Source: Candidatus Bilamarchaeaceae archaeon | GTDB lineage: Archaea > Micrarchaeota > Micrarchaeia > Anstonellales > Bilamarchaeaceae | Length of the DNA: 64,000 nucleotides | Reading direction: 5' to 3' | Assembly (NCBI GenBank): GCA_038851325.1 | Contig: JAWCKZ010000001.1 | Location: 111,410-175,409 of the forward strand | Part shown: piece by piece, positions 8,690 to 58,404 of the stretch | How positions within the stretch are numbered: position 1 is the stretch's first letter | Layout: each line of letters starts with the position of its first letter | Notes under the pieces: model-generated | Databases searched by the model: none | Told to the model about the DNA's origin: nothing | Seen by the model: only the letters and a program-made list of their open reading frames with translations | Program-made: the position numbers and the translations under genes

Positions 8690-9071
8690 GGGCCTGTAGT
8701 CGAATGCTGGAAGGCCGGCATTGGTTAAGACGTTACCCTGACAAGGCTTTTTGTCTTCGGTGTTTCTGAGGGCAAAAACCCTGGAAAAAGCCCTGAGGTT
8801 TCTCCTCTGGGTGTGTTGGGCTTTTTGTCTTCGGTGTTTCTGAGGGCAAAAACCCTGGAAAAAGCCCTGAGGTTTCTCCTCTGGGTGTGTTGGGCTTTTT
8901 GTCTTCGGTGTTTCTGAGGGCAAAAACCCTGGAAACGGCATTTGGCTCCTAAGCAGGTGCTTATGACCTGAGGATTGTCTCAGGAGCTAAATACCGTTTG
9001 GAAAAAGACTTGAGGAAAACTCCTGTCTTCTGTAACGGTAAAGATTCCCGGTTCGATCCCGGGCGGGCCCA
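8690..9071 (+). tRNA. tRNA-Val (anticodon GAC) with two introns. A roughly 17-nt insertion in the D-loop, and an about 292-nt intron at the anticodon loop that contains a 74-bp tandem repeat.
   Basis: Hand-folded. Acceptor GGGCCUG(8690-8696)/CGGGCCC(9064-9070) with discriminator A. D-stem GUCG, D-loop AA[ugcuggaaggccggcau]UGGUUA. Anticodon stem UUACC(8733-8737)/GGUAA(9037-9041), loop CUGACAA. Perfect T-arm CCCGG-UUCGAUC-CCGGG (9047-9063). No encoded CCA. Confidence 0.6.
8745..8937. repeat. 74-bp tandem repeat, about 2.6 copies, beginning exactly at the predicted start of the tRNA-Val anticodon intron
   Basis: Unit GGCTTTTTGTCTTCGGTGTTTCTGAGGGCAAAAACCCTGGAAAAAGCCCTGAGGTTTCTCCTCTGGGTGTGTTG repeated identically at 8745-8818 and 8819-8892. 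Third copy truncated near 8937. Confidence 0.85.
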
Positions 9072-9159
9072 ATCCTTCATTTGTTTGCAGGAGTGGCGGT
9101 TGGTTTGACATGCGCTTGCTGTCAAAGCCCGCCACTGTCGTAATGTATTTTGCTGCAAC

Positions 9160-9278
9160 AATTGTTTTCGCAGGAGTGGCGGAGTGGTCAAACGCGGCAG
9201 ACTCAAGATCTGAATGTTCCTTTCACGATTGTGTGGTGGGAAATCTGTTGGCCAAGCGCCTACACAGGTTCGAATCCT
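9160..9278 (+). tRNA. tRNA-Leu (anticodon CAA) with an intron of about 35 nt at the canonical anticodon-loop position
   Basis: Acceptor GCAGGAG/CUCCUGC with discriminator A. D-arm GCGG-AGUGGUCAAAC-GCGG. Anticodon loop CUCAAGA. Long variable arm UGGCCAAGCGCCU. T-arm ACAGG-UUCGAAU-CCUGU. AUCUG duplicated (9198-9202 and 9234-9238), consistent with an intron between them. Confidence 0.65.
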
Positions 9279-9319
9279 GTCTCCTGCATCTTTTTATTTT
9301 TATTCCTAGATAAGGAGAC

Positions 9320-10249
9320 ATGCACAGAAAAGTAAGGAAGATAATATACGATATCTCCTCCCTAAAAATACAGGGCGCACGAAATGTGGCAAAGACAGCC
9401 GTTCAAGCGCTTGTGCTCCAGGCTATGCACACAAGAGCGAAAAACCCTACTGCACTTTATAAAGAGATAAAGGCATTGCGGGAAATAATCATATCAGCAA
9501 GACCTACAGAACCCATGACCCGCAACATGACAGAGGAAGCGTGCAATTTCCTTTTAAGCGAATCAAAATCCGGTAAAAGCATCGATGAGGTTATAAAAAA
9601 GTTTATAAAGCAAGGAGAAATCGCCATAAAAAAGATGGATGAAGATGTCAAACGACTCTTTCAATATGGTGCACAACTCATCCCGCAAAACGCAGTTGTA
9701 ATAACGCACTGCCATTCCTCAACCGTAACTGGAATTCTCAAAACAGCAGAAAAAATGCGTAAGGAAATACGTGTTATCGCTTGCGAAACAAGGCCAAGAT
9801 ACCAGGGTAGAATAACCGCAACAGAGCTTGCGGAAGCTGATATAGACGTCACCCTTGTAGTGGATGGGGCGATGAATCTTTATATGAAGAAAGCTGACAT
9901 AGTCCTTGTTGGTGCGGACTCTGTTACATCGCGCGGCGACCTCATAAATAAGGTTGGAACAAGCACGCTCGCACACATCGCAAGGATGCATGACGTCTCA
10001 TTTTATTCTGCAGCAGAGCTTTTCAAATACAGCCCTATGACATTTTATGGTGTCTTGGAAAAAATAGAGGAAAGAGACCCAAATGAGATATGGGAAAAAC
10101 CACCTAAAAATGTTAAGATAAGCAATCCAGCGTTTGATGTTACGGCAGCAAAATATGTCAATGGGTATATAACAGAAGTTGGTGTAATACCGCCTCAAAC
10201 CTTCTTCTCGCTTGCTACTCAAAAACTTGGTATAAAAATATATGGATAA
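9320..10249 (+). CDS. ribose-1,5-bisphosphate isomerase (eIF-2B alpha/beta/delta-like, e2B2 family)
   Basis: eIF2B-related fold and conserved C-terminal region (GADSVTSRGDLINKVGTSTLA). Located immediately upstream of AMP phosphorylase, as in the archaeal AMP salvage pathway. Confidence 0.75.
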   Translation: MHRKVRKIIYDISSLKIQGARNVAKTAVQALVLQAMHTRAKNPTALYKEIKALREIIISARPTEPMTRNMTEEACNFLLSESKSGKSIDEVIKKFIKQGEIAIKKMDEDVKRLFQYGAQLIPQNAVVITHCHSSTVTGILKTAEKMRKEIRVIACETRPRYQGRITATELAEADIDVTLVVDGAMNLYMKKADIVLVGADSVTSRGDLINKVGTSTLAHIARMHDVSFYSAAELFKYSPMTFYGVLEKIEERDPNEIWEKPPKNVKISNPAFDVTAAKYVNGYITEVGVIPPQTFFSLATQKLGIKIYG

Positions 10250-10258
10250 GGTGAGCGT

Positions 10259-11869
10259 ATGATAAAGCAGCCTGTAGCTGAAAACCCACATAAAGAAAGC
10301 GCTACTCAGGAGTTTGTTGAAAAAGAGGTAAAGAAGGTAGATGTTTGGCGGTACAAGAAGTACATATGCAAAGTGAAGCCTATTGGGATATACGCAGGCG
10401 GTAAAAACATAATAGTACTTAACACCGATGAGGCTGAGAGCCATGATATATACGCAGGATACAGAACCGAACTAAAAACACCAAAAGCAACAATAATTGG
10501 AATTGTTGATACGAGCGATAAACTCGTAAAACCTGGTGAAGTTGGGATCTATGATGATTTTGCAAAAGAATTCCATCTAAAAGCAGGAGAAGAGGTCGAG
10601 ATCGTTCATATGGATAGGCCTGCTTCTATAGGCTACATAAAAAAGAAGCTCGATAAAGGAACGCTCGAAAGCAACGAAATAAAAACTATTGTAACCGAGA
10701 TAATGGAGAACAAACTTAGTGAGGTTGAAACCTCTGCGTTTATAGCTGCGGCATACATAAATGGGATGGCTGACAGCGAAGTAATCGCATTGACAAATGC
10801 AACTGTAGAATCCGGGGAAACACTAAATCTAGGGAGGGGACCTATACTCGATAAACACTGTATTGGGGGGGTAGCGGGAAATAGAACAACCATGATTGTT
10901 GTTCCAATAATCGCCGCTGCTGGTCTCTATATGCCCAAGACATCCTCACGTGCCATAACAAGCGCAGCTGGCACGGCAGATACAATGGAAGTGTTAGCCA
11001 ACGTCACGTTCAGCATGGATGAGCTAAGAAAGATGGTGCTCAAGACAAAAGGGGCGATAGTGTGGGGAGGAGGAATGAAGCTTGCACCTGTAGATGACAA
11101 ATTAATACGCATAAGGCACCCGTTAAGTCTTGATCCGGAAGGCATGCTTCTTGCGAGTATCCTTGGAAAGAAAAAAAGCGTAGGCGCAGAATACGTAATA
11201 ATAGATATTCCAGTTGGGCGAGGTGTTAAGATACCATACTACGAGAAAGGAAGGGAGCTAGGTGACCATTTTATAAAAATAGGAAAGCAACTTGGAATAA
11301 AGATAGAGGTGCTAATTACAGATGGCGCAGAGCCTATAGGAAACGGTATAGGACCGTCCCTGGAGTGTGTAGATGTTCTCCATGTGCTCAATGGCAAGGG
11401 CCCCGAGGATCTTAGGCACAAGAGCATTCTCATGGCTGGAAAGCTCCTAGAACTTTGTGGTAAGGTTGGGAAAGGCGAAGGATACAGTGCAGCTGAAAAT
11501 CTTATAACAACTGGAAAAGCGCTAAAGAAGTTCCTTGAGATCGTGGAGGAGCAGGGAGGAAATCCAAGGGTCACTGTTGATGATATTCCTATTGGAAAAT
11601 ACGCCTACACTGTTAAATCAAAGGTGAGCGGTTCTATATTCCATATAGACAATCACTCTATTTCAAAGATTGCGCGGATAGCCGGTGCACCGAAATCAAA
11701 AGGTGCTGGTGTACTTCTGCATAAGACAAGAGGGAATAGGGTAGAGGTTGGGGATTCTTTGTTCACGGTTTACGCTGAGAAAGAAACCCTCTTAGATTAC
11801 GCAATAAAAGCACTTGAAAAACTTGAGCCAATAGAGATGAGAAAGATGCTTCTTGGAACCATGGAGTAG
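10259..11869 (+). CDS. AMP phosphorylase (thymidine-phosphorylase family with an N-terminal extension)
   Basis: About 530 aa. Pyrimidine-nucleoside-phosphorylase core (DKHCIGGVAGNRTTMIVVPIIAAAG, SRAITSAAGTADTME) and a C-terminal PYNP domain. Length and N-terminal extension are typical of archaeal AMPpase. Confidence 0.85.
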   Translation: MIKQPVAENPHKESATQEFVEKEVKKVDVWRYKKYICKVKPIGIYAGGKNIIVLNTDEAESHDIYAGYRTELKTPKATIIGIVDTSDKLVKPGEVGIYDDFAKEFHLKAGEEVEIVHMDRPASIGYIKKKLDKGTLESNEIKTIVTEIMENKLSEVETSAFIAAAYINGMADSEVIALTNATVESGETLNLGRGPILDKHCIGGVAGNRTTMIVVPIIAAAGLYMPKTSSRAITSAAGTADTMEVLANVTFSMDELRKMVLKTKGAIVWGGGMKLAPVDDKLIRIRHPLSLDPEGMLLASILGKKKSVGAEYVIIDIPVGRGVKIPYYEKGRELGDHFIKIGKQLGIKIEVLITDGAEPIGNGIGPSLECVDVLHVLNGKGPEDLRHKSILMAGKLLELCGKVGKGEGYSAAENLITTGKALKKFLEIVEEQGGNPRVTVDDIPIGKYAYTVKSKVSGSIFHIDNHSISKIARIAGAPKSKGAGVLLHKTRGNRVEVGDSLFTVYAEKETLLDYAIKALEKLEPIEMRKMLLGTME

Positions 11870-11905
11870 CATTATAAATTCTTTGGCTTATCTCTTACTT
11901 CGCGT

Positions 11906-12070
11906 CCCGCCATAGCTCAAAGCACCTAGCGAGCAATGGTAGAGCGATCGGCTGTAGTTCGGGTACTCCTTTCCGGAGAAAAAGGTCGCTGATACCGATA
12001 GGTTGCTGGTTCAAATGCACACGCGCTACTTCGCATTGGCGTAGATGCAGAATACGTCCGGCTGGCGGGA
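11906..12070 (+). tRNA. tRNA-Tyr (anticodon GUA) with three introns (D-loop, anticodon loop 37/38, T-loop/T-stem junction)
   Basis: Acceptor CCCGCCA(11906-11912)/UGGCGGG(12063-12069) with discriminator A, then a T-tract. D-arm GCUC-AA[~16 nt]UGGUA-GAGC. Anticodon stem AUCGG/CCGAU with loop CUGUAG[~36 nt]A (matches archaeal Tyr loop CUGUAGA). T-arm GCUGG-UUCAAAU-[~41 nt]-CCGGC. Confidence 0.6.
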
Positions 12071-12083
12071 TTTTTTATTTAAT

Positions 12084-13631
12084 TTAATGTCTGAAGTGTC
12101 GCATGCCTGTAAAGACCATCGCTATATTGTGCTCATCGGCTGCCCTTATAACTTCTGCATCATTTACCGAACCACCGGGCTGAATTATCGCAGTAACACC
12201 AAGCTTGGCTGCATAATCTACCCCGTCCCTGAACGGAAAGAATGCATCGCTTGCCATTGCGCACCCTTCAAGGCCCTCTCCAGAATCCTGCGCAACCATG
12301 GCACCAACCCTAGCCGCGTCTATTCTTTTCATCTGCCCTGCCCCAATACCTACAGCCCTGTTCTCTCTCGCATAGACGATGGCATTCGAACGAACATATT
12401 TTACAATCTTCCATGCATACAACATTGATGCCATCTCGCTCTCAGTTGGTTTTCTTCTTGTAACGACCCTTAGTTCCTTGTAGAGCTCCACATCGCTGTC
12501 CTGCACAAGGAAGCCGCCCAGAACTGAGCGGTATCTTCTGTACCTTACTACGCCAGCCTCTATGGGAAGCTCCAGAAGACGGATGTTTGGTTTTTTAGCA
12601 AAAACTTTTTTTGCCTCTTGCGTAAAGGATGGTGCAAGAACTATCTCAACAAACCTGGTGGTTATCTCTGATGCCAACTTACCGTCCACCTCGCGATTTA
12701 CTGCAACTATACCACCAAAAGCAGCCTCCGGATCAACAGCCCTTGCTGTGAGATAAGCATGGTGTATGCCACTGCTTGATGCCACGCCGCATGGATTGTT
12801 ATGCTTTACTATAACTGCAGTTGGCTCTTCAAACTCCTTTATCAAATTATATGCAGAGTTAGCGTCCAGAACATTGTTGAACGAAAGTTGCTTCCCCTGG
12901 AGCTGCTTTGCCCTTAAAAGCGAGGGGTTTTTTTCATGCTCGTCTATATAGAGCGCTGCTGTTTGATGTGGATTTTCTCCGTATCTTAGGCCCTGCTTTT
13001 TCCTAAATGTAAGATTTAGATACTCTGGATATTCAAACTCATTACCAAAAGTTTTTCTGAAATAATTCTCTATAACAACATCATAATGAGCTATGTGCAT
13101 CCACGCTTCTATTGCAAGCTCTCTACGAAAACTTTCGCTTATCTCACCTTTCTCTATTTCAGCCAAAAGCTGTTCGTATCTTTCTGGATTACAAACCACT
13201 GCCACCTGTCTAAAATTTTTTGCAGCAGCGCGAATAAGGGTTGGACCACCGATATCTATATTCTCTATAATCTCCTCAAATGAGCGACCGCTAAGGACAG
13301 TCTGCTCAAACGGATATAGATTTACTGCAACCACATCGATGGGGACTATCCCGGCTCTTCTTGCTTCCTCCGCATGCATCTCGTTCGTTCTATCCATGAG
13401 TATTCCACCATGGATTTTTGGATGGAGCGTCTTCACCCTGCCATCCATCATCTCTGGAGATCCTGTGAACTGCGATAATTCTATAGCATCTATGCCATTT
13501 TTCCTAAGCGTCCTAGCAGTACCGCCGCTTGATATAATCTTAAAACCAGCGCTGTGGAGCCCTCTGGCAAACTCGACTATTCCTTTTTTTTCAAAAACAC
13601 TGAGTAAGGCGTACCTATCGCTATCACTCAT
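12084..13631 (-). CDS. purH: bifunctional AICAR formyltransferase / IMP cyclohydrolase
   Basis: MGS-like N-terminal domain and AICARFT C-terminal domain, 515 aa. Conserved VVAVNLYPF and GGTxxT motifs. Confidence 0.9.
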
Positions 13632-25954: not shown

Positions 25955-26848
25955 ATGGTGAGGGAGCGGCTACTCTGGATCGACGTTGTACGAACACTTG
26001 CGATCTTCCTTATAGTACTTTTTCATTTTATCTATGAGATAAACCCGGATCAATCGCTTCGTTGGATAGGTTATGTTGGTGTTTCGCTTTTTTTTATTGC
26101 GAGCGGCTATGTGCTTGCCAAGAACTACCCAGATCTTGAAAATCTCAACCTCAGTTGGCTCAAGAAAAGATACGTCAGGATAGTATCGCTATATTACCCA
26201 ACCCTAATCGCAATCGTTCTTCTTTTCTCAACGCAGACGTGGTATAGAGGCATCCATGATCTAATCCTTCATTTTATCTTCCTGAATTTTGTATCTCACG
26301 ATACCCTTTATTCGATAATAAGTCCTGCATGGTTCCTTATTCCCTTGATGGGCTTCTATCTCTTCTTTCCGTATCTTAACCGTTTACTCAAGTGGTCAAA
26401 ATACATCCTCATTATCGCCTTCCTTCTGATGATCGCAGACAGGATTTTGATTGAAAAGGGCTGGATCTCCTACTCCCCTCTCTCTTTCCTTGGGGATTTT
26501 TGTTTCGGCATAGCGTTCGTTCAAGATAGAAAGAACTTAGCGCTTGCTGCTTCAGTACTCACAGTCATCGCTAGCCCTCTGATGGCAATTCCATACTTCA
26601 TCTTTTATCTCATGTCTTCCATCGAACATTGGAATGCAGACCCCTTCGGTATATTTTCTACTATAAGCAAGTACACGCTCGAAATATTCCTCTTCCATGA
26701 ATCTATAATGATGGTATTGCTTAGGAAGTGGAGCATTTATAGCCTTGACATTTTCTCTTCGCTTGCGGTTCTCATTATCACTTTATCTATAGTTGAAAAG
26801 ATATCTATTTTGGTTCAACAGTGGCTTTTGCCAAAGATAGATGGTTGA
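25955..26848 (+). CDS. acyltransferase family 3 membrane protein (OafA-like)
   Basis: About 10 TM. N-terminal LWIDVVRTLAIFLIVLFHF matches the acyltransferase_3 signature (R...H). Confidence 0.6.
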   Translation: MVRERLLWIDVVRTLAIFLIVLFHFIYEINPDQSLRWIGYVGVSLFFIASGYVLAKNYPDLENLNLSWLKKRYVRIVSLYYPTLIAIVLLFSTQTWYRGIHDLILHFIFLNFVSHDTLYSIISPAWFLIPLMGFYLFFPYLNRLLKWSKYILIIAFLLMIADRILIEKGWISYSPLSFLGDFCFGIAFVQDRKNLALAASVLTVIASPLMAIPYFIFYLMSSIEHWNADPFGIFSTISKYTLEIFLFHESIMMVLLRKWSIYSLDIFSSLAVLIITLSIVEKISILVQQWLLPKIDG

Positions 26849-28049
26849 ATCTTTTTTTATTAACCAGTATAATCTGTCTGAGCGCGCTCCCCAAAGTTTT
26901 TTTCTGCACCCTAACGATGGCAACAGCCCTTCCACCTCGGTTGATTACCCGTTGACCCTTGTGCGCTCTACGAAAGTTCTTTACATGTTCGCTCATTTCA
27001 ATTGGTGGGCCTTTCTTTTCCATCGTTCCACCGACAATTGCTTTTTTTGTCACAATTGCTATTTTCACGATATCGTTGGAGTCGGCAAAGATGTCCTTTA
27101 CATCAAAGTCAGAAAGTTCGGTTCTAAGCGTCCTCATAAACTTCTTCAGTTGACCCCAAAGGATATCATCAACAACCTCGGCCCTAGGCATTTCAATGAT
27201 GCGCACAATGCCATTCCTTCGTCTTACCTTTTCATCAAAGGACTCGGGCTTTTTAAAGAAAAACACCTCGCGGGGCTTTTTATTAAATTTCTTGCAGAGC
27301 GAAATGAATCTCTTCAAATTATCCTCTGAGAGCGCAGCCGCGACGTTTCTGTTTTTATCAGTAGGGTCGATAACCACAAATCTTGAATTAAACCTTTTAA
27401 TCAACTCGTCTTTCTTCAGTCCTTTATAATACCCCTTGATATCTATAACCATAGGAAGTTTCCAGCGAAGGACCGCCTTCAGCAATCTTCTAAAGCTTCC
27501 GTATCTAATAATAAGAAGTTCGCAGAGATATCCTGACAGCCCTTCCACGCGTATCTCCGCACCATATAACTCGTTTGCCTTTAGGAATTTTTTCAGCAGT
27601 CTCACTTCATCTCTTTGGCTTTTTTTCAGATTTCTCAAAATGAATCTCGTATGGAGAACAGAACGATCAACTGCTGTCAATCGTTCCTTTGCGTTTTTCG
27701 TTTTATACGCTGGCACCAGATCAATTCGTCTCGCTCCAAAATGAAATCGTATGTATGGATGCTCTGCGTAATTCATTTGGTATGCATACCCTGGAAATGC
27801 TTTGCGAAAAATGCTCTCAAGTTCGGTTTTGATTTTTTCTTTGTCAAGTCGCTCGTCAAATAAAATAAATAGGTCTACGTCACCCTCGCCGGATAGAAAT
27901 GTTTTCTTCGCAACCGAGCCTACCAAGGCTATTTCCCGCTCTGTAGCTTTCCCCAAGCGCCGCCTAAGCTCGCGCACTGTTTTTTGAAGAGAGAGCACTT
28001 CATCTGGGGAGGGTCGCAGTTTTTTAACGACCTCTTTTAGTATTTTCAT
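26805..28049 (-). CDS. cca: CCA-adding enzyme (archaeal class I tRNA nucleotidyltransferase)
   Basis: N-terminal GSVAKKTFLSGEGDVDLFILF (Pol-beta-like NTase G[SG]...D.D) and archaeal CCA body and tail domains. About 410 aa. Confidence 0.85.
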   Translation of the reverse strand: MKILKEVVKKLRPSPDEVLSLQKTVRELRRRLGKATEREIALVGSVAKKTFLSGEGDVDLFILFDERLDKEKIKTELESIFRKAFPGYAYQMNYAEHPYIRFHFGARRIDLVPAYKTKNAKERLTAVDRSVLHTRFILRNLKKSQRDEVRLLKKFLKANELYGAEIRVEGLSGYLCELLIIRYGSFRRLLKAVLRWKLPMVIDIKGYYKGLKKDELIKRFNSRFVVIDPTDKNRNVAAALSEDNLKRFISLCKKFNKKPREVFFFKKPESFDEKVRRRNGIVRIIEMPRAEVVDDILWGQLKKFMRTLRTELSDFDVKDIFADSNDIVKIAIVTKKAIVGGTMEKKGPPIEMSEHVKNFRRAHKGQRVINRGGRAVAIVRVQKKTLGSALRQIILVNKKRFNHLSLAKATVEPK

Positions 28050-28149: not shown

Positions 28150-29772
28150 TTGCTGGGAAAAAAGTTTATGGCGGAGGAATTTACAGAAGAAGAAAAAAAA
28201 GTGCTGCACCTTTTTGTCAGCAACACGGATAAGAATATTTTTGTATTGAAAAATCTTCCAGAGGTTGTAAAGGGCGCGCTTTTCTCACGCTATAGTAGGA
28301 GTTCAAAATCTCTTCGCCGCCTCCTTCTCGATGAATTCATCGGAAACAAGGAACTTAGTGTAGAAAAACTAATGAACAAACCTGAAGAGGATATAGTTAT
28401 TACAAAAAAGGCAGAGGAGTTTTATGACCGTGTTCTTGTGGGATTCGGGGATGATTCCGTTGCTGAGCTTGCGGGAACGCATCTTGCGCTAGAGAACATA
28501 TCCATGCTTGCAACAAAAGCCATAGAGGATTGCCGCATAGGCCTATCTCCCCTAGAAAAATCGACACGATATGTATACTTTGACAAAAAGGTCGATGGCA
28601 AATGGCTATACTACGAAGAACCAAGGCTAATGGAGGAATTTCCTGATGATTACAGAGAAGCATGCAATAGAGCTTTCGAAACATACACTGGACTTATCCA
28701 GAAGATATCTAAATATGTAAGTGAGAAGCTGGAACAAGGTCAACTTTCTGACAGAGCGTACGAAGCGGTTGTACGAGCTAAAACGTGCGACATCCTGCGC
28801 GGGCTTCTGCCTGCCTCAACTCTGACAAACATGGGAATATTTGGAAATGGGAGGGCCTTCGAGTATCTTCTCATAAAACTTTATGCGAGTAATCTTTCAG
28901 AACTAAAAATCATTGCTGCCCAAACCGAAAATGAACTCAAGAAAACAATCCCGTCCTTCGTAAAGCGCGCAAGTGAGAGACACGGTATTGAAATGCAGGA
29001 GTACCTAAGAGGACTTACAGAGAACATGATTTCTGTTGCACCAAAAGAAATATCCACAGAATGCGACTCGGTAAGGCTTGTTGATTATGATAAGGATGCC
29101 GAAGTGAAGATCATAGCTGCGATGCTCTACCCACACTCCGCACTTACTCTCGTGGAATTGGAAGAGCGAGTAAGAAAAATGCCAGAAGCCGAACGAAGAG
29201 CGCTGCTTAGTGCCCATTTTAGCAGAAGAACAAACAGGAGGCATAAACCAGCAAGGGGATTTGAGCGGGTATACTACACATTCGAGGTATGCACGAACTT
29301 TGGTGCCTACAGAGATCTTCATAGACACAGGATGCTTACGCAGCAGAGACAATTGCTGACAACAAAGCTCGGATACGATATCCCTAAAGAGATTGTTGAA
29401 GCAGGGCACGAGAGTGAATTCAAAGATGTTATGGAGGTCGCAGCCAACGGGTATGAAAGGATTGCAAAAAAACTGCCAGAAGAAGCGCAGTACATCGTGC
29501 CGCTCGCATATAGAATCAGATGGCAGATAACAATGAACCTCAGGGAGGCCTTTTACCTCTGCGAACTGCGTTCGACAGCACATGGCCATAGGGATTATAG
29601 GCACATAGCACAGGAGATTTGCAGAAAAATAAAAAGTGTCCACCCCTTCTTAACAGAAGGGATGATGTTTGTTGATATGAAAGAGTACGAATTTGAACGG
29701 CTTGAATCAGAGAAGAGAATGGACAAAAAAATCGAAGAAATAAAAAAGAAATACGGTAAAGGGAATAATTGA
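28150..29772 (+). CDS. thyX: ThyX-like FAD-dependent thymidylate synthase, unusually long form (540 aa)
   Basis: RHR...TQQRQ motif (HRHRMLTQQRQ) resembling the ThyX RHR-x7-S/SQxSxRY signature. N-terminal half carries an FSRYSRS-like segment, which suggests a duplicated or extended ThyX fold. Confidence 0.5.
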   Translation: MLGKKFMAEEFTEEEKKVLHLFVSNTDKNIFVLKNLPEVVKGALFSRYSRSSKSLRRLLLDEFIGNKELSVEKLMNKPEEDIVITKKAEEFYDRVLVGFGDDSVAELAGTHLALENISMLATKAIEDCRIGLSPLEKSTRYVYFDKKVDGKWLYYEEPRLMEEFPDDYREACNRAFETYTGLIQKISKYVSEKLEQGQLSDRAYEAVVRAKTCDILRGLLPASTLTNMGIFGNGRAFEYLLIKLYASNLSELKIIAAQTENELKKTIPSFVKRASERHGIEMQEYLRGLTENMISVAPKEISTECDSVRLVDYDKDAEVKIIAAMLYPHSALTLVELEERVRKMPEAERRALLSAHFSRRTNRRHKPARGFERVYYTFEVCTNFGAYRDLHRHRMLTQQRQLLTTKLGYDIPKEIVEAGHESEFKDVMEVAANGYERIAKKLPEEAQYIVPLAYRIRWQITMNLREAFYLCELRSTAHGHRDYRHIAQEICRKIKSVHPFLTEGMMFVDMKEYEFERLESEKRMDKKIEEIKKKYGKGNN

Positions 29773-41329: not shown

Positions 41330-41417
41330 AACAGATAAATATAGGTTTAAAGCGTTTTCGCTCTAAATAATGAAAAAAAAAGACCAGTTAGTTTATTCTG
41401 TTTAAGATGGTGATACG

Positions 41418-41612
41418 ATGGAAAAAAAGAAACAATTAGCTAAGAATCCAGCGGAGGATTACGGAAAAAGGCAAGGGTACAAAACTAGGCTTGACGGATG
41501 CCATTGCTACCGCATCTTTGTGCAAGATCTTGAAAAAAAGATGTCTGCAACGAATGTAAGCAGATACGCAGAGGAAAGGAAAAATCCTTTTTGCAGGATG
41601 TGCCCGCTCTAG
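41418..41612 (+). CDS. small Cys-containing protein (possible zinc ribbon), hypothetical
   Basis: 64 aa with CHCY ... CRMCP. Confidence 0.3.
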   Translation: MEKKKQLAKNPAEDYGKRQGYKTRLDGCHCYRIFVQDLEKKMSATNVSRYAEERKNPFCRMCPL

Positions 41613-41894
41613 TTCCTGGCTTAGTTTTTGCTTTTTTCTTTGTAAAAGTTTAAAAAATACCACCAACAACCTCACAAGATTTTCATTTTATTCCTTTCGA
41701 CTCCAACGAACGAAGAAAATTTGAGAGTTGAGATAGCTCAGCTAAGGCAGCAGTTGGCGAGGGCGTTGAAGAGGGTATTTCAGCTGGCAAAGGAAGATGA
41801 AAAGCTGCAGGCAGCTCAGGCAATTCCTCAACGAAAATACTCCTTCGAAAATTTCTTTCGATAATATTTTATTTCTCCTCGACGATTATTAGTC

Positions 41895-51428: not shown

Positions 51429-51470
51429 GCAAGTTATGAAAGAATACACAAAAAATTTATAGCAGGCATT

Positions 51471-51890
51471 GTGCTTCTTAGCTATCTGGGATTAATTTTT
51501 TTCTACCTTTTTCCTGTCGCTCCACCTTGGCTGGCAGCAGAGAAGGGCCTTATTTCTGTTAATCGCTATACAGCCGTCTATCCACTTTATTTTACAGTTT
51601 ATTTGTTCATAAATGCGAATCCGGTTGCTGCAATGCCGTCGCTTCATTTTGCTTATCCGTTTCTGATATTCCTTTTTTCATGTGTCTGCAAGCCGTTGCG
51701 TAGATTTCTGCCGTTGACAATCTTTATAATGCTTGGAATAGGCACGGCTATAATGTGGCTTGGCGAGCATTACCTTACTGATATTATTGTTGGTGTAATA
51801 TTCGCATCTTTCTCATTTCTAATTGTCGACAGTATTTTTACGCAGCCTGAAAGCAAACATATCATAGAGCATGGAAAAGCTAGTAGTTAA
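51471..51890 (+). CDS. PAP2-superfamily membrane phosphatase (possibly the C-terminal part of a gene interrupted by an in-frame stop)
   Basis: PAP2 motifs: K-x6-R-Y (KGLISVNRY), PSLH (PSGH-like), and GEHYLTD (SR-x5-H-x3-D-like). GTG start. Confidence 0.55.
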   Translation: MLLSYLGLIFFYLFPVAPPWLAAEKGLISVNRYTAVYPLYFTVYLFINANPVAAMPSLHFAYPFLIFLFSCVCKPLRRFLPLTIFIMLGIGTAIMWLGEHYLTDIIVGVIFASFSFLIVDSIFTQPESKHIIEHGKASS

Positions 51891-53071: not shown

Positions 53072-53740
53072 TCAACCCACTTTTTTCTTGACAAAATTAA
53101 TAGTCTGCTTGGCAGGTCTGATTGCCTTTTCTGCATCTTCGGCATCAAATGCTTCTGCAGGAATGCCACCAGGAAGTCCTGCCGGATAACGCGTGGGGAT
53201 ATAGTACTTGTCAAAAGAGGATATCTTCGACCTTAACTCTCCGAATTCCTTGTTCAGTTTTTCATCATCGTAGGCAAGCTCTGCTATCAAATGGCCCCAC
53301 ACTTCTTCGGCGCCATGTGCATAAAGGAATGATTTAAGGGCTTTTTCGGCTGCATCCTGTCCGGCTTGTTTCGGCCAGCGCTCGGCCTCTTTTTTTTGCT
53401 CAGGCTTCATACAGCACTGTCCCCCTCTCCAGCATTCTCCGTGTAAATAGCTGCTTGATTTCAGGTCTGCGATTTCTGCGGGTGTGTAAACAAAAAAATC
53501 CACGACAACTCTTGGCTTAACGCGCGCATAAAGCTCTTCGAGCCTTTCGGAGAATCTCTTTCCCGTATTTTTTATTATTGCGATGTCCATGTCGCTGCTC
53601 TTGCGCACTTGCTTCTCATTCAAAGAACCGAAAAGGATTATTTTCAGGGCGCCCAGCTTTTTTATTTCTGCAAGTATTCGCCTAAGCTCAGCCTTGAGTA
53701 GTTTTTCCCTCTTTTTGCCGAGGCCTGTTTTGAATTCCAT
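53072..53740 (-). CDS. nucleotidyltransferase (MNT) - HEPN fusion protein
   Basis: N-terminal Pol-beta NTase motif LFGSLNEKQVRKSSDMDIAII (GS-x9-13-D-x-D). C-terminal helical region with HEPN-like character. Confidence 0.55.
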   Translation of the reverse strand: MEFKTGLGKKREKLLKAELRRILAEIKKLGALKIILFGSLNEKQVRKSSDMDIAIIKNTGKRFSERLEELYARVKPRVVVDFFVYTPAEIADLKSSSYLHGECWRGGQCCMKPEQKKEAERWPKQAGQDAAEKALKSFLYAHGAEEVWGHLIAELAYDDEKLNKEFGELRSKISSFDKYYIPTRYPAGLPGGIPAEAFDAEDAEKAIRPAKQTINFVKKKVG

Positions 53741-53775
53741 AAAACCCTTTTGATTGCGACTGCTTTAACTCTTCG

Positions 53776-54012
53776 TTAGATCAGCTTCTTTCCTTTCTCC
53801 TCAAGATGTATGCAGTTAACAGGGCAGGACTGCGCCGCACTCATGCTGCAACCGGCATCCTTTGCTTCAAGAACGAACAGCTTTCCGTTTTTCTTCGCAT
53901 TTTTCAGGACGGATTTCCCGTCGCTGCCCATCTCCCAGTTTGCAGGACAGACCGCAACGCACGCGCCGCAACCAATACACGCATCTCTATCATGTATTAT
54001 CTTAACAGTCAT
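53776..54012 (-). CDS. 4Fe-4S ferredoxin
   Basis: CIGCGACVAVCP cluster motif plus distal CP. 78 aa. Confidence 0.8.
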   Translation of the reverse strand: MTVKIIHDRDACIGCGACVAVCPANWEMGSDGKSVLKNAKKNGKLFVLEAKDAGCSMSAAQSCPVNCIHLEEKGKKLI

Positions 54013-54783: not shown

Positions 54784-56241
54784 ATGCAAGTCTATGATTC
54801 CGTTGAGAAAAAATTCGTTGAGTTTACCCCTCTCGAAGACAATCTTGTGATAATGTATGTTTGCGGGCTCACGCCGTATGATCAGGCGCATATAGGCCAC
54901 GCAAGAACTTACGTAGCATTCGATGTGATTAAGAGATATCTTGAAGCAAAGAACTATCGAGTTTTTCACATTCAGAACATTACTGATGTTGATGATAAGA
55001 TAATAGATAGATGCAAGCATACGCACGCAGAACCAAAACAGTTAACGGAGAAAAATCATGCCGAGGCACTTAGTCTTTTTGATAAGCTTGGCATAAAAAG
55101 AGCGGATGTCTACCCAAGGGTGACAGAGCACATCAAGGATGTAATAGAGTTGATAAAAGCGCTAATAGAGAAAGGTTATGCCTACGAAACTGCAACTGGA
55201 GTTTATTTCGATGTCTCACAGTTCGCAGACTACGGAAAATTATCAGGACAGAGAATGAGTGAAATGCGCGCCGGCGCAAGGATTCCACCTGACGAAACAA
55301 AGAAGGATGCACTTGACTTTGCTATTTGGAAAAAAACGAATGGCGAACTCATAGAGTTTGACTCTCCGTGGGGGCGAGGGCGACCTGGATGGCATATAGA
55401 ATGCTCTGCTCTTGCACTGAAGTATATAAAAAGTGCAAGTAGCGATACCAAACGTGCAACTTTGGATATCCATGGCGGCGCGCGCGACCTAATCTTCCCT
55501 CATCACGAGAATGAGATAGCGCAGAGCGAGAGTGTAACGCGCAAACCATTTTCAAAATATTGGTTGCACACAGGGTTTCTAACTGTTCGTGGAGAAAAGA
55601 TGTCCAAATCACTTGGTAATTTTATAACAATAAAGGATGCGCTGGAGCGGCTTCACCCCATGGCGCTCAGAATATTCTACCTCAAAAGCCATTACCGAAG
55701 CCCTGTTGATTACGAAGAGGAAGCGGTCGCTGAGGGAGCAGAGGTTTATAATAAGATAAAAAACACCTTGCTGCTTATAGAGGAAGCGCTGGAAAAAAAG
55801 GGGGATGGTGGTTCTGAGCTCAGGGTGGATACAACCGTCAATGAGTTCTACGCAGCGATGGACAATGACTTTGATACCCCTGCCGCGCTTGCCGCACTCT
55901 TTAAACTCATGAAAGAGGTGAACATAGAGATAAACAAAGACAGAATAGATAAGAACGGAATAAGAATCGCCAAAAAAGAAATGGAAAAAATGCTCAACAT
56001 TTTAGGGATAATAATAGAAAAGAGTGCGATCTCTGAAAAAAAGGAGCTGGTGTCACTTGCGGAGCGATTTGGAATAAAGGCACATACACCAGAGGAAGCG
56101 ATAGAAAAATTGATAGATGCGAGAGAGCGCGCGAGAAAAGGAAAGAATTACGCTCTGTCGGATGAGATAAGGGCCGAACTTAGAAGGATCGGCATTATCC
56201 TTGAGGATAAAGTAGAAGGGATTAGATGGAGGGTCGAGTGA
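54784..56241 (+). CDS. cysS: cysteinyl-tRNA synthetase
   Basis: HIGH (HIGHARTY) and KMSKS (KMSKSLGN) class I motifs. CysRS zinc ligands. Confidence 0.9.
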   Translation: MQVYDSVEKKFVEFTPLEDNLVIMYVCGLTPYDQAHIGHARTYVAFDVIKRYLEAKNYRVFHIQNITDVDDKIIDRCKHTHAEPKQLTEKNHAEALSLFDKLGIKRADVYPRVTEHIKDVIELIKALIEKGYAYETATGVYFDVSQFADYGKLSGQRMSEMRAGARIPPDETKKDALDFAIWKKTNGELIEFDSPWGRGRPGWHIECSALALKYIKSASSDTKRATLDIHGGARDLIFPHHENEIAQSESVTRKPFSKYWLHTGFLTVRGEKMSKSLGNFITIKDALERLHPMALRIFYLKSHYRSPVDYEEEAVAEGAEVYNKIKNTLLLIEEALEKKGDGGSELRVDTTVNEFYAAMDNDFDTPAALAALFKLMKEVNIEINKDRIDKNGIRIAKKEMEKMLNILGIIIEKSAISEKKELVSLAERFGIKAHTPEEAIEKLIDARERARKGKNYALSDEIRAELRRIGIILEDKVEGIRWRVE

Positions 56242-56633
56242 TGTATAGACTCTTGGAGCATCCTTCTGATATAATTGTTGAAGGAAGGGGAAGGACGTTT
56301 GAGAGTGCTCTTGAAAGCGTTGCTAATGGAATGTTCACGCAGATGGGCGCAGCGCGCGCGAGAGAAAAGGAAGCCATCGAGATAGAATCGGCCATGTCAA
56401 CGCTTGAGGATGTTGTAGTAGATGCGCTCACGAAGATAATTGCGGAATGTGAAAGCATTCCGTTCACGCCAAAAAGGGCAGAAGTCATCAGGGCGGAGAA
56501 TAGAGCTGTAAGGATAAAGGTTTTTGGTGAAAGAAAACAACCTGCGAACGTCATAAAAGCAGTTACCTATCATGACCTACAAGTTGAGAGAAAAAAGGGC
56601 GGATGGGTAATACGGGTGCTTTTTGATATCTAA
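56226..56633 (+). CDS. archease
   Basis: LEHPSDIIVEG...AVTYHDLQV...RVLFDI conserved archease blocks. Confidence 0.8.
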   Translation: MEGRVMYRLLEHPSDIIVEGRGRTFESALESVANGMFTQMGAARAREKEAIEIESAMSTLEDVVVDALTKIIAECESIPFTPKRAEVIRAENRAVRIKVFGERKQPANVIKAVTYHDLQVERKKGGWVIRVLFDI

Positions 56634-56957: not shown

Positions 56958-57587
56958 ATGATTGCGATGGGCTACAGAGCGCTGCATACGCAGGGCGAAC
57001 GTTGGCTTCTGCACAAGTTAAGGGCAGAAGGCCATGACGTTAATTTAGAAGTCCGAAAAAATAATGATGTGATATTTGATGTCTATGACGAAACAGAAGG
57101 GACTGCGTGGGAGGTGTTGACAGCCAAGTTCTTTAAATCAGCGCACGAACAGGATGAGGCGATTATCGCAAAGATATTTCGCTATCTTCTCCATTGCAAA
57201 CAGTTAAGATTTCTCGTAGTTTCGGTAAACTCGGAAGAGATTAAATTACTTCATAAGATTGGACTTGAACACTGGCATATCTATGGCGATTATTGGAGCG
57301 AAGGGCTTCGCGGCTTCGAATATCATAAAGGAACGTCTTCATTAGACATCGCAAAGAAAATCTATAAAGCCCTTGTTGGTTATGCACCAATCCACGAGTG
57401 GTGTAGGAAAGGCAGACGAAAATACCATCCAAAGGCAGAGGTAGAGAAGGATTTTGCACGGATCACGAGAGCGCTTGGGCTGCCGAAAAATTTTCTTATC
57501 GGGCTCTGGCGCGACTGGCACCTTGTGTGGGTCTGGAAGCTCGAAAACGCACTTCGAAAGTGGAAGCTTAAAAAAACCTACCTATAA
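56958..57587 (+). CDS. hypothetical protein with possible PD-(D/E)xK nuclease-like N-terminus
   Basis: IFDVYDE ... EVLTAK spacing is compatible with D ... (D/E)xK. Otherwise no recognisable motif. Confidence 0.3.
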   Translation: MIAMGYRALHTQGERWLLHKLRAEGHDVNLEVRKNNDVIFDVYDETEGTAWEVLTAKFFKSAHEQDEAIIAKIFRYLLHCKQLRFLVVSVNSEEIKLLHKIGLEHWHIYGDYWSEGLRGFEYHKGTSSLDIAKKIYKALVGYAPIHEWCRKGRRKYHPKAEVEKDFARITRALGLPKNFLIGLWRDWHLVWVWKLENALRKWKLKKTYL

Positions 57588-57609: not shown

Positions 57610-58404
57610 ATGCCAGTTCTTGAGGACATGTTAAGCCAGCTTGAAATAAGAGCAGTGGATGCGCTCTATGGACACGAAGAGACAATCTCACGAAGTCTGA
57701 AGCGATTGAAGGAGGGAATGCTCAATATCGGCCAGTTGGTCGACCCTTTGATAGTCGATGGAAAGACTGGTGTTGTTCTCGACGGTAATCATCGACTAAA
57801 GGTCCTTGAGATAATAGAGTGCCCGTATGCGGTATGCCAAGTGGTAAACTACTCCAGCCCGGAAATACGCGTTGGAACGTGGCACCCCTCGCTTAAGATA
57901 TCAAAGGATGAGCTCCTCCAGCTTGATTCTATAAAATGCGAGAAGGTCGATAGAGAAACGGGATTAAAGGCGGTGAACGAACTCCGCTCTCCCGCAATGG
58001 CCATTATTCCAGATGGAGAATGCTACCTAATCAATCCTGGAAATTACAAGATCAAGGAGATGATAGAGGAACAGCGCTATCTCCTTGGACTTATTGAGAA
58101 CAGGCAGCCTCAGTATATTCCGGATGAGGAAATAGAGAGGCATAGAGTTCTCGGTGAAACTGTATTTTATAGGCGAGCATACACAAAAGGGGAGATAATA
58201 GCAATGGCCACGGCTCACTCACCCCTCCCACCAAAATCAACACGACATCTCATTCCAGGTAGGATAATAAGGTTGAATATGAGGCTTGGTTGGCTCCATC
58301 TTGATAAGGAATCTGCCTGGAAGGAGCTTGTTGGGATGCTCAAAAAGAGAGCGTATAATGGAAACGTCCGAAAATATTATGAACCAGTCATAGTTATATA
58401 TTAG
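57610..58404 (+). CDS. ParB/DGQHR-like domain protein (DndB-like / ParB-N fold)
   Basis: VVLDGNHRLKVLE resembles DGQHR/ParB-N motif. 264 aa. Confidence 0.4.
   Translation: MPVLEDMLSQLEIRAVDALYGHEETISRSLKRLKEGMLNIGQLVDPLIVDGKTGVVLDGNHRLKVLEIIECPYAVCQVVNYSSPEIRVGTWHPSLKISKDELLQLDSIKCEKVDRETGLKAVNELRSPAMAIIPDGECYLINPGNYKIKEMIEEQRYLLGLIENRQPQYIPDEEIERHRVLGETVFYRRAYTKGEIIAMATAHSPLPPKSTRHLIPGRIIRLNMRLGWLHLDKESAWKELVGMLKKRAYNGNVRKYYEPVIVIY

Follow-up and report, generated by a model that had tools for sequence, protein, structure and literature searches.

Among archaea, the closest described precedent for the gene considered here is ARMAN-2 (Ca. Micrarchaeum), in which 56% of the tRNA genes are disrupted, at intron sites that vary and include 59/60 as well as the combination 53/54 + 59/60, and whose splicing endonuclease (EndA) of the epsilon2 type cuts both strict and relaxed bulge-helix-bulge (BHB) motifs (PMC3239211). 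The epsilon2 form has been reported for ARMAN-1 and ARMAN-2 (PMC3239211) and also for the Micrarchaeota archaeon Mia14, and the incomplete tRNA sets of new DPANN genomes have been put down to disrupted genes that went undetected (PMC5829648). tRNAs interrupted by three introns are, moreover, known from Crenarchaeota and from nucleomorphs (PMC4090602). Here we describe a locus from a 64,000-nt stretch of a Candidatus Bilamarchaeaceae archaeon (GenBank assembly GCA_038851325.1, contig JAWCKZ010000001.1), referred to below as the window, whose own numbering is used throughout. Judged from its sequence and that of its relatives, the locus very probably represents a functional tRNA-Tyr(GUA) gene, probably present as one copy, with three introns of the BHB type in a Micrarchaeota (DPANN) archaeon.

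The gene occupies positions 11906-12070 of the plus strand (165 nt) within a 214-nt intergenic gap, and all its parts listed here lie on that strand. A sequence-only reading of the stretch had proposed a tRNA-Tyr with introns of about 16, 36 and 41 nt in the D-loop, at the canonical 37/38 site and in the T-loop, and this layout is borne out by the coordinates, the stems, the ARAGORN call on the spliced product and the ortholog alignment. Exon 1 (11906-11920, tRNA positions 1-15) holds the 5' strand of the acceptor stem (CCCGCCA), U8 A9, the 5' strand of the D stem (GCUC) and A14 A15, and is followed by the 16-nt intron 1 (AGCACCTAGCGAGCAA, 11921-11936), located in the D-loop between positions 15 and 16. 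Exon 2 (11937-11957, positions 16-37) continues with UGGUA, the 3' strand of the D stem (GAGC), G26, the anticodon-stem strand AUCGG and the loop nucleotides CUGUAG with the anticodon GUA, after which the 36-nt intron 2 (11958-11993) interrupts the gene at 37/38. Exon 3 (11994-12014, positions 38-58) supplies A38, CCGAU, the variable loop AGGUU, the T-stem strand GCUGG and UUCAA; the 41-nt intron 3 (12015-12055) fits best at 58/59 in the T-loop, with boundaries given to +/-1-2 nt; and exon 4 (12056-12070, positions 59-73) ends the gene with GU, the T-stem strand CCGGC, the acceptor strand UGGCGGG and the discriminator A73. In the DNA, CCCGCCA (11906-11912) pairs with TGGCGGG (12063-12069), leaving A12070 as the discriminator, and the remaining stems are formed by GCTC/GAGC (D), ATCGG/CCGAT flanking CTGTAG...A (anticodon) and GCTGG/CCGGC (T); the acceptor stem, T stem, anticodon loop CUGUAGA and discriminator A named in the sequence-only reading are thus all present. 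CCA is not encoded at the 3' end. The predicted promoter is a TATA-box-like element, TTATAAAT (11872-11879), centred ~31 nt upstream of tRNA position 1, and orthologous genes have TTTATAAG at an equal distance; directly after the discriminator comes an oligo-T run, TTTTTTATTT (12071-12080, the T-run proper being 12071-12076), which is likely to be an archaeal transcription terminator.

Excision of the 16, 36 and 41 nt leaves a 72-nt product that ARAGORN calls as tRNA-Tyr(gta), a canonical four-helix cloverleaf with a class I short variable loop and the conserved features C1-G72, A73, U8, A14, G18G19, U33, GUA, U54U55C56 and A58. The anticodon loop restored by removing 11958-11993 has 7 nt, with U33 and a purine at 37. 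C1-G72 (11906 with 12069) and A73 (12070), which are identity elements of archaeal and eukaryal tyrosyl-tRNA synthetases, are invariant in all 10 orthologs compared. Left unspliced, the gene escapes the usual tools: ARAGORN in its default mode reports no tRNA in the whole window, and Rfam gives no match at the locus at its gathering threshold or even at E<=10, the sole window tRNA that it finds being the one at 9170-9288. Both misses are to be expected because the gene has three introns, and they are not counter-evidence. On spliced variants, ARAGORN tolerates nearly any D-loop deletion, so the boundaries of intron 1 had to rest on other evidence. The fold z-score of the pre-tRNA (-1.6) is not significant and was not counted as evidence.

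The decisive evidence for a tRNA-Tyr with three introns is comparative. A complete tRNA-Tyr gene lies 3' of the same AMP-phosphorylase gene, at a distance of ~40 nt to 2 kb, in 12 related loci (cited by their L numbers where they need to be told apart), and in these 12 Micrarchaeota orthologs the exons are the same whereas the intron content varies. The 37/38 intron is the only one in L006, L007, L008, L021, L030, L033 and L034, whose D arm (GCTCAA[T/C]GGTAGAGC) and T arm (GCTTG-TTCAA[G/A]T-CAGGC) are both contiguous. L002, L001, L005 and L023 add to it a D-loop insert of 16, 32, 29 and 45 nt, respectively, and in L025 and L050 a D-loop insert starts just before the contig ends. The window and L059, which belong to the same species, carry the 16-nt D-loop insert, the 37/38 intron and the 41-nt T-loop insert, and L026 has introns at 35/36 (644 nt) and 37/38 together with a separate, unrelated 22-nt T-loop intron at 59/60. 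When the unspliced genes are aligned with MAFFT, block gaps fall cleanly and exactly on the D-loop and T-loop inserts; the former is missing from eight orthologs (the seven with the 37/38 intron only, and L026), and the 41-nt T-loop insert occurs in no other species and is shared only with L059. Once spliced, the 10 distinct orthologous sequences pair in 210 of 210 cloverleaf cells, and 9 of the 21 pairs undergo compensatory double changes, a level reached by 0 of 500 shuffles and not approached by any slid register either. Two compensations are specific to the window: pair 7:66 is A-U there versus U-A or G-C in the Micrarchaeota orthologs, and pair 52:62, which closes across the 41-nt insert, is G-C versus U-A. 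These window-specific pairs argue that selection on the gene as a tRNA continues despite the interruptions. A scan of one metagenome with the 15-mer AGGTTGCTGGTTCAA returned mostly random matches and ~7 real tRNA-Tyr genes, all of them with 37/38 introns only, so that no further allele with a T-loop intron came from that source, and a BLAST comparison of the three introns with the window and all fetched loci turned up no paralogous ones. Taken at the level of sequence comparison, the locus is confirmed as a genuine tRNA-Tyr gene with three insertions, which would be protein-spliced introns.

Where exactly would the introns be cut? Every pair of cuts was scored for a BHB motif, i.e. a 4-bp central helix (H) that stops 2 nt short of either cut, bulges of 3 nt, and two flanking helices, the outer (h) and the inner (h'). 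In the D-loop, 11920|11936 (15/16) is the only cut pair that has an H of 4/4 and removes the 16 extra bases; the resulting motif is of the HBh' type, its H being formed by GCUC of the D stem and GAGC of the intron, its bulges by AA|A and AA|U, and its h' by GC/GC (2 bp). The minimum free energy (MFE) fold of the D arm is this very motif, and the MFE fold of the full-length pre-tRNA contains it as well, together with the acceptor stem and the T stem. Site and motif recur in L001, L002, L005 and L023, with H 4/4 in all except L023 (3/4). Across the six genes concerned, the 15/16 introns start with AG and end with G[A/G/U]G[C/U]AA, and have an h' of 2-6 bp built from unrelated sequences; structure conserved without sequence in this manner is a signature that points to selection on the BHB structure.

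For the T-loop intron, the sequence-only reading had arrived at a mature loop of UUCAAAU, i.e. at cuts at 59/60 or 60/61, which were rejected since they leave only 1/4 central-helix pairs. The cut at 12014|12055 (58/59), two bases 5' of 60/61, has an H of 4/4 with one G.U pair (G53UUC56/GAAU), a 5' bulge AA|A and a 4-bp h' (UGCA/UGCA), and gives the loop UUCAAGU, which is also that of the closest relatives, L001 and L002; its BHB conformer lies 1.7 kcal/mol above the MFE. The best inference from this geometry is therefore an intron at 58/59, uncertain by 1-2 nt, and the product spliced in this way folds as a canonical tRNA-Tyr. At 37/38 the motif is of the hBH type, with the 5-bp anticodon stem as h, a bulge AU|A, H formed by CUGU/GCUG, and an h' of zero. 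Because the 37/38 site and the 3' end of this intron (four H nucleotides followed by AU|A or AA|A) are common to all 13 genes, the intron is ancestral in the clade.

Intron 2 also provides a natural allele pair. L059 is an NCBI contig (JAWCPX010000014.1, GCA_038870055.1) that encodes exactly the same AMP-phosphorylase protein as the window and is 99.73% identical to it over 6730 nt, with 8 single-nucleotide polymorphisms (SNPs) and one gap. This independent assembly has the same three inserts, and the exons are identical, as is the mature tRNA-Tyr. The only indel in the 6.7 kb falls inside intron 2, where GATACCGATA occurs twice in tandem in L059 (4731-4750) and once in the window (11991-12000), the 10-nt duplication sitting at the 3' exon-intron junction. 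As a consequence, intron 2 of L059 measures 46 nt, its last six bases (AUAG-AU) fit the family consensus GUAG-AU, and its H is 4/4. The indel behaves as expected of intronic sequence, and the window form may have arisen by slippage, as a deletion that weakens the motif, or may be a repeat collapsed during assembly.

Several results weigh against a functional gene with three introns and deserve to be set out together. The central helix of the 37/38 motif is imperfect in the window allele (H 3/4, with a U.U mismatch), which is the exception to the H of 4/4 seen in 12 of the 13 genes (L059 and 11 other orthologs), and constrained folding places its BHB conformer 4.7 kcal/mol above the MFE; even orthologs with a perfect H have this conformer above their MFE, however, so fold energies do not discriminate. 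The 3' bulge of the T-loop intron is non-canonical and enlarged (5 nt if the T stem is kept), and, since mature T loops of either sequence, UUCAAGU or UUCAAAU, are seen among relatives, it is geometry alone that selects 58/59. The BHB criterion is itself unspecific when used by itself, with 113 relaxed hits in 215 nt (chance level), and it therefore served only to choose among cuts that restore the tRNA and was not counted as evidence. Finally, no tRNA-intron-endonuclease domain (EndA, tRNA_int_endo) was found in the scanned window open reading frames (ORFs) of >=80 amino acids (aa), the thresholds being E<=1e-5 for annotated ORFs (for six of them the default of 1e-3) and E<=0.1 in a rescan of those without annotation, and no RtcB gene was found in the 64-kb window.

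Could the locus then be a decaying tRNA-Tyr pseudogene, inactivated by the lineage-specific 41-nt insertion in the T-loop, by the loss of 10 nt from the 3' junction of the 37/38 intron, or by both, with a functional copy elsewhere? Such decay would suit the T-loop insert, which is unique to this species among the 13 Micrarchaeota and ~7 metagenomic tRNA-Tyr genes and has the irregular 3' bulge just mentioned, and also the imperfect central helix at 37/38, in which the window allele stands alone among the 13. It would be hard to reconcile with the two window-specific compensatory pairs, one of which (52:62) spans the insert and the other of which is 7:66; with a promoter, a terminator and conserved tRNA nucleotides that are all intact; or with exons that are identical in two strains whose flanking DNA differs by 8 SNPs. 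The locus, moreover, is the syntenic tRNA-Tyr position of the relatives, and archaeal genomes usually carry a single gene per isoacceptor. On balance, a pseudogene is improbable, and the gene is better read as functional.

Less probable still is that the transcript would be only partially excised, for example with the 16-nt D-loop insert kept as an expanded D-loop, or that the inserts would leave by a route other than BHB splicing. There is indeed no outer helix h in the D-loop motif, and h' spans only 2 bp. Yet five other genes have an insert at the same site with H 3-4/4, an h' of up to 6 bp and unrelated sequences, orthologs without the insert have a standard 7-nt D-loop, and a retained insert would pair the D stem with the intronic GAGC and put 17 nt between A14/A15 and G18G19. 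As for a non-BHB route, the candidate of a self-splicing group I intron was rejected for the tyrosine inserts, which at 16, 36 and 41 nt are far below the >=200-nt core and have no Rfam match at E<=10; a split or permuted tRNA gene was likewise rejected, all four exons being colinear on one strand within 165 nt. An assembly or chimera artefact, by which the inserts would be absent from the real genome, hardly merits any credence: the two assemblies do differ by a copy of the 10-nt tandem repeat within the gene, perhaps collapsed in one of them, but the same three inserts are found in an independent NCBI assembly with 8 SNPs elsewhere, and homologous D-loop and 37/38 introns occur in many other metagenome-assembled genomes (MAGs).

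For a functional three-intron gene, we infer the following course of events. Transcription from the gene's own TATA promoter to the T-run would yield a pre-tRNA of ~170 nt with three BHB-type introns, each of which would pair locally with the adjacent exon so that its two cut sites come to lie in bulges ~4 bp apart. The motifs would be HBh' in the D-loop (15/16), hBH at 37/38 and a relaxed BHBh' in the T-loop (58/59), which, being in three different arms, could coexist. A splicing endonuclease of broad specificity, presumably of the epsilon2 type by analogy with the ARMAN-2 literature, would cut all six sites, whereupon RtcB, aided by Archease, would ligate the four exons, RNase P and RNase Z would trim the ends, and the CCA-adding enzyme would complete the 72-nt tRNA. 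Among these factors, the window encodes Archease, the RtcB tRNA-ligase cofactor (56226-56633, plus strand; PF01951, 4.6e-25), and an archaeal CCA-adding enzyme (26805-28049, minus strand). Archease is followed by two ORFs (56958-57587 and 57610-58404) that have no Pfam match.

How did a single tRNA come to be interrupted three times? As far as the sequences tell, the 37/38 intron is the ancestral one in the clade, the 15/16 intron has been repeatedly gained or lost, and the T-loop intron is a lineage-specific gain. The promoter regions of the tRNA-Tyr genes are near-identical within the pairs L005 and L006 (85% nucleotide identity around the locus) and L007 and L023 (74%), whose members differ by the presence or absence of the 15/16 intron, indicating that its gain or loss was recent in both. 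L026, whose tRNA-Tyr (1568-2354) has three introns at sites unlike those of the window, is of separate interest: its 644-nt intron at 35/36 has an H of 4/4 and an h' of 14 bp, contains the ORF of a LAGLIDADG homing endonuclease (219 aa; PF14528, 4e-11) and was rejected as a group I intron, there being no group I match in Rfam; its 22-nt intron at 59/60 is a strict hBHBh', one base downstream of the 58/59 site of the window. It is conceivable, albeit doubtful, that the Micrarchaeota tRNA-Tyr locus records ongoing mobility of BHB introns, in which insertion driven by homing endonucleases, loss of the ORF and slippage of junction repeats would be linked. Behind this thought stand the 15/16 hot spot, with introns of unrelated sequence that come and go between congeneric genomes, the LAGLIDADG intron of L026 and the 10-nt junction duplication, by which two 99.7%-identical strains differ and a perfect central helix is made or lost; if true, it would explain in concrete terms how short non-canonical tRNA introns arise, with the window gene as a late stage.

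The window holds two further tRNA genes that were found. tRNA-Lys(CUU), on the minus strand at 46179-45801, is missed by both ARAGORN and Rfam and has three introns as well, of which the one in the D-loop measures 87 nt (46162-46076, after U17), the one at 37/38 86 nt (46054-45969) and the one at 59/60 132 nt (45946-45815); once spliced to 74 nt, it is called as tRNA-Lys by ARAGORN. Its D-loop and T-loop introns share a block of ~40 nt at ~85% identity, which suggests an intron duplication or transposition within this gene. tRNA-Leu(CAA), on the plus strand at 9170-9288, reaches 55 bits in Rfam and has one canonical 35-nt intron at 37/38 and a long variable arm; the intron mode of ARAGORN mislabels it as Ser(cga). 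All three tRNA genes found in the 64-kb window are interrupted (seven introns altogether), and default tools overlook two of them. The sequence-only reading had also held that the D-loop intron position of tRNA-Tyr is shared with a tRNA-Val and might reflect recurrent insertion. The whole window and all its large gaps were scanned for acceptor/T-arm and acceptor/terminator combinations, and no tRNA-Val emerged, the other hits of these scans being rejected as lying in coding regions or not folding as tRNAs; in tRNA-Lys, the only other window tRNA with a D-loop intron, that intron sits ~2 nt further 3'. Recurrent insertion is real for 15/16 among the tRNA-Tyr orthologs and is not confirmed as a position shared with another tRNA of the window.

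Some observations concern the surroundings of these other tRNA genes. The first 13 nt of tRNA-Leu (GCAGGAGTGGCGG) are copied at 9087-9099, 83 nt upstream, much like the 5' tRNA fragments left by integrating elements, and the gap upstream of this gene also contains a perfect tandem repeat (8745-8935; period 74 nt, 2.6 copies, 100% identical) that overlaps only a doubtful 87-aa ORF. An 11-mer, AAGCCCTGAGG, is common to this repeat and to the D-loop intron of tRNA-Lys, and is not significant alone.

The tRNA-Tyr gene is flanked upstream by an ORF for an AMP-phosphorylase-like protein (10259-11869, plus strand; Pfam Glycos_trans_3N/Glycos_transf_3/PYNP_C, also called deoA) and downstream by purH (12084-13631, minus strand). 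Proteins of two Candidatus Micrarchaeota MAGs match the AMP phosphorylase at 85-87% identity and ~35 others do so at 62-75%, and further genes of the window are archaeal (an archaeal-type S-adenosylmethionine synthetase, a ribose-1,5-bisphosphate isomerase and the archaeal CCA-adding enzyme); because of these matches, the host is, on gene content, a DPANN archaeon of the Micrarchaeota. DPANN-like genomes were among the lineages that the sequence-only reading had named, and it was in this lineage that disrupted tRNA genes and the broad-specificity epsilon2 enzyme were first reported (PMC3239211). The GC content of the window is ~43%. The ribose-1,5-bisphosphate isomerase (IF-2B family) adjoins the AMP phosphorylase (9320-11869, plus strand, for the two together). 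The archaeal AMP/RuBisCO salvage pathway has three enzymes, and that two of them are encoded here is worthy of note in a small DPANN genome. Elsewhere, a ThyX-like ORF of 540 aa (28150-29772, plus strand), which matches the Thy1 domain over two separate segments, the better one covering residues 309-499, is about twice the usual length and may reflect a duplication or fusion. Three gaps, at 41330-41894 (565 nt), 53215-53805 (591 nt) and 51429-51818 (390 nt), contain no ORF of >=80 aa, no Rfam match and, by our own scans, no tRNA.

What is the significance of such a gene? Its practical value is that of a hidden essential tRNA: genes of this kind are missed by ARAGORN, by Rfam and probably by routine annotation of MAGs, with the result that DPANN genomes seem to be without essential tRNAs and that estimates of completeness and codon capacity are distorted. 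Its comparative value lies in the intron series, in the two splice-motif alleles and in the ortholog intron bearing a homing endonuclease. The series of orthologs gives a dated, site-resolved account of how one tRNA locus gained and lost introns, and the introns are natural substrates for working out the rules by which endonucleases of broad specificity recognise relaxed BHB motifs, comprising an HBh' motif whose h' is 2 bp long, a T-loop intron whose bulge is enlarged, and two alleles with a central helix of 3/4 versus 4/4.

Set beside the systems already described, the locus most resembles ARMAN-2, a member of the same phylum with disrupted tRNAs and an epsilon2 EndA (Fujishima et al. 2011, PMC3239211; PDB 4FZ2, Hirata et al. 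2012), with which it has in common non-canonical sites that include the T-loop, several introns per tRNA, relaxed hBH and HBh' motifs and invisibility to default gene finders. Unlike ARMAN-2, the window lineage is non-acidophilic and represents a distinct branch of Micrarchaeota (the closest MAGs having 85-87% AMP-phosphorylase identity), its introns occupy 15/16 and 58/59 in a tRNA-Tyr with three introns, and its enzyme is only presumably of the epsilon2 type. The multi-intron tRNAs of Thermoproteales and other Crenarchaeota, which are served by an (alpha-beta)2 EndA, likewise bear as many as three BHB introns per gene, at 37/38 as well as in the D- and T-arms (Sugahara et al. 2007, 2008; PMC4090602), and there, too, intron gain is rapid and lineage-specific, with paralogous introns suggesting transposition, as in the tRNA-Lys of the window. 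In contrast, the host described here belongs to another superphylum with a presumably different enzyme architecture, and no match in sequence to its tyrosine introns was found among the other introns of the window and of the fetched loci. In Caldiarchaeum subterraneum, close genomes differ in intron content or length at the tRNA-Thr locus (Sugahara et al. 2012, PMC3293823), just as do L005 and L006, L007 and L023, and the window and L059, but the difference in that case involves a 1.8-kb element encoding a recombinase, whereas no mobile element lies beside the tyrosine gene and the window and L059 are set apart by the copy number of a 10-nt repeat. The three-intron tRNAs of cryptophyte nucleomorphs and the BHB introns of Cyanidioschyzon merolae (PMC4090602) also combine D- and T-arm with anticodon-loop introns, up to three per gene; those, however, reside in eukaryotic organelle-like genomes, measure 3-24 nt and are processed by another endonuclease complex. 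A gene of this kind is already known from ARMAN-type Micrarchaeota and from Thermoproteales, and the phenomenon was established in 2007-2011; the tRNA-Tyr of the window extends that picture and does not change it.

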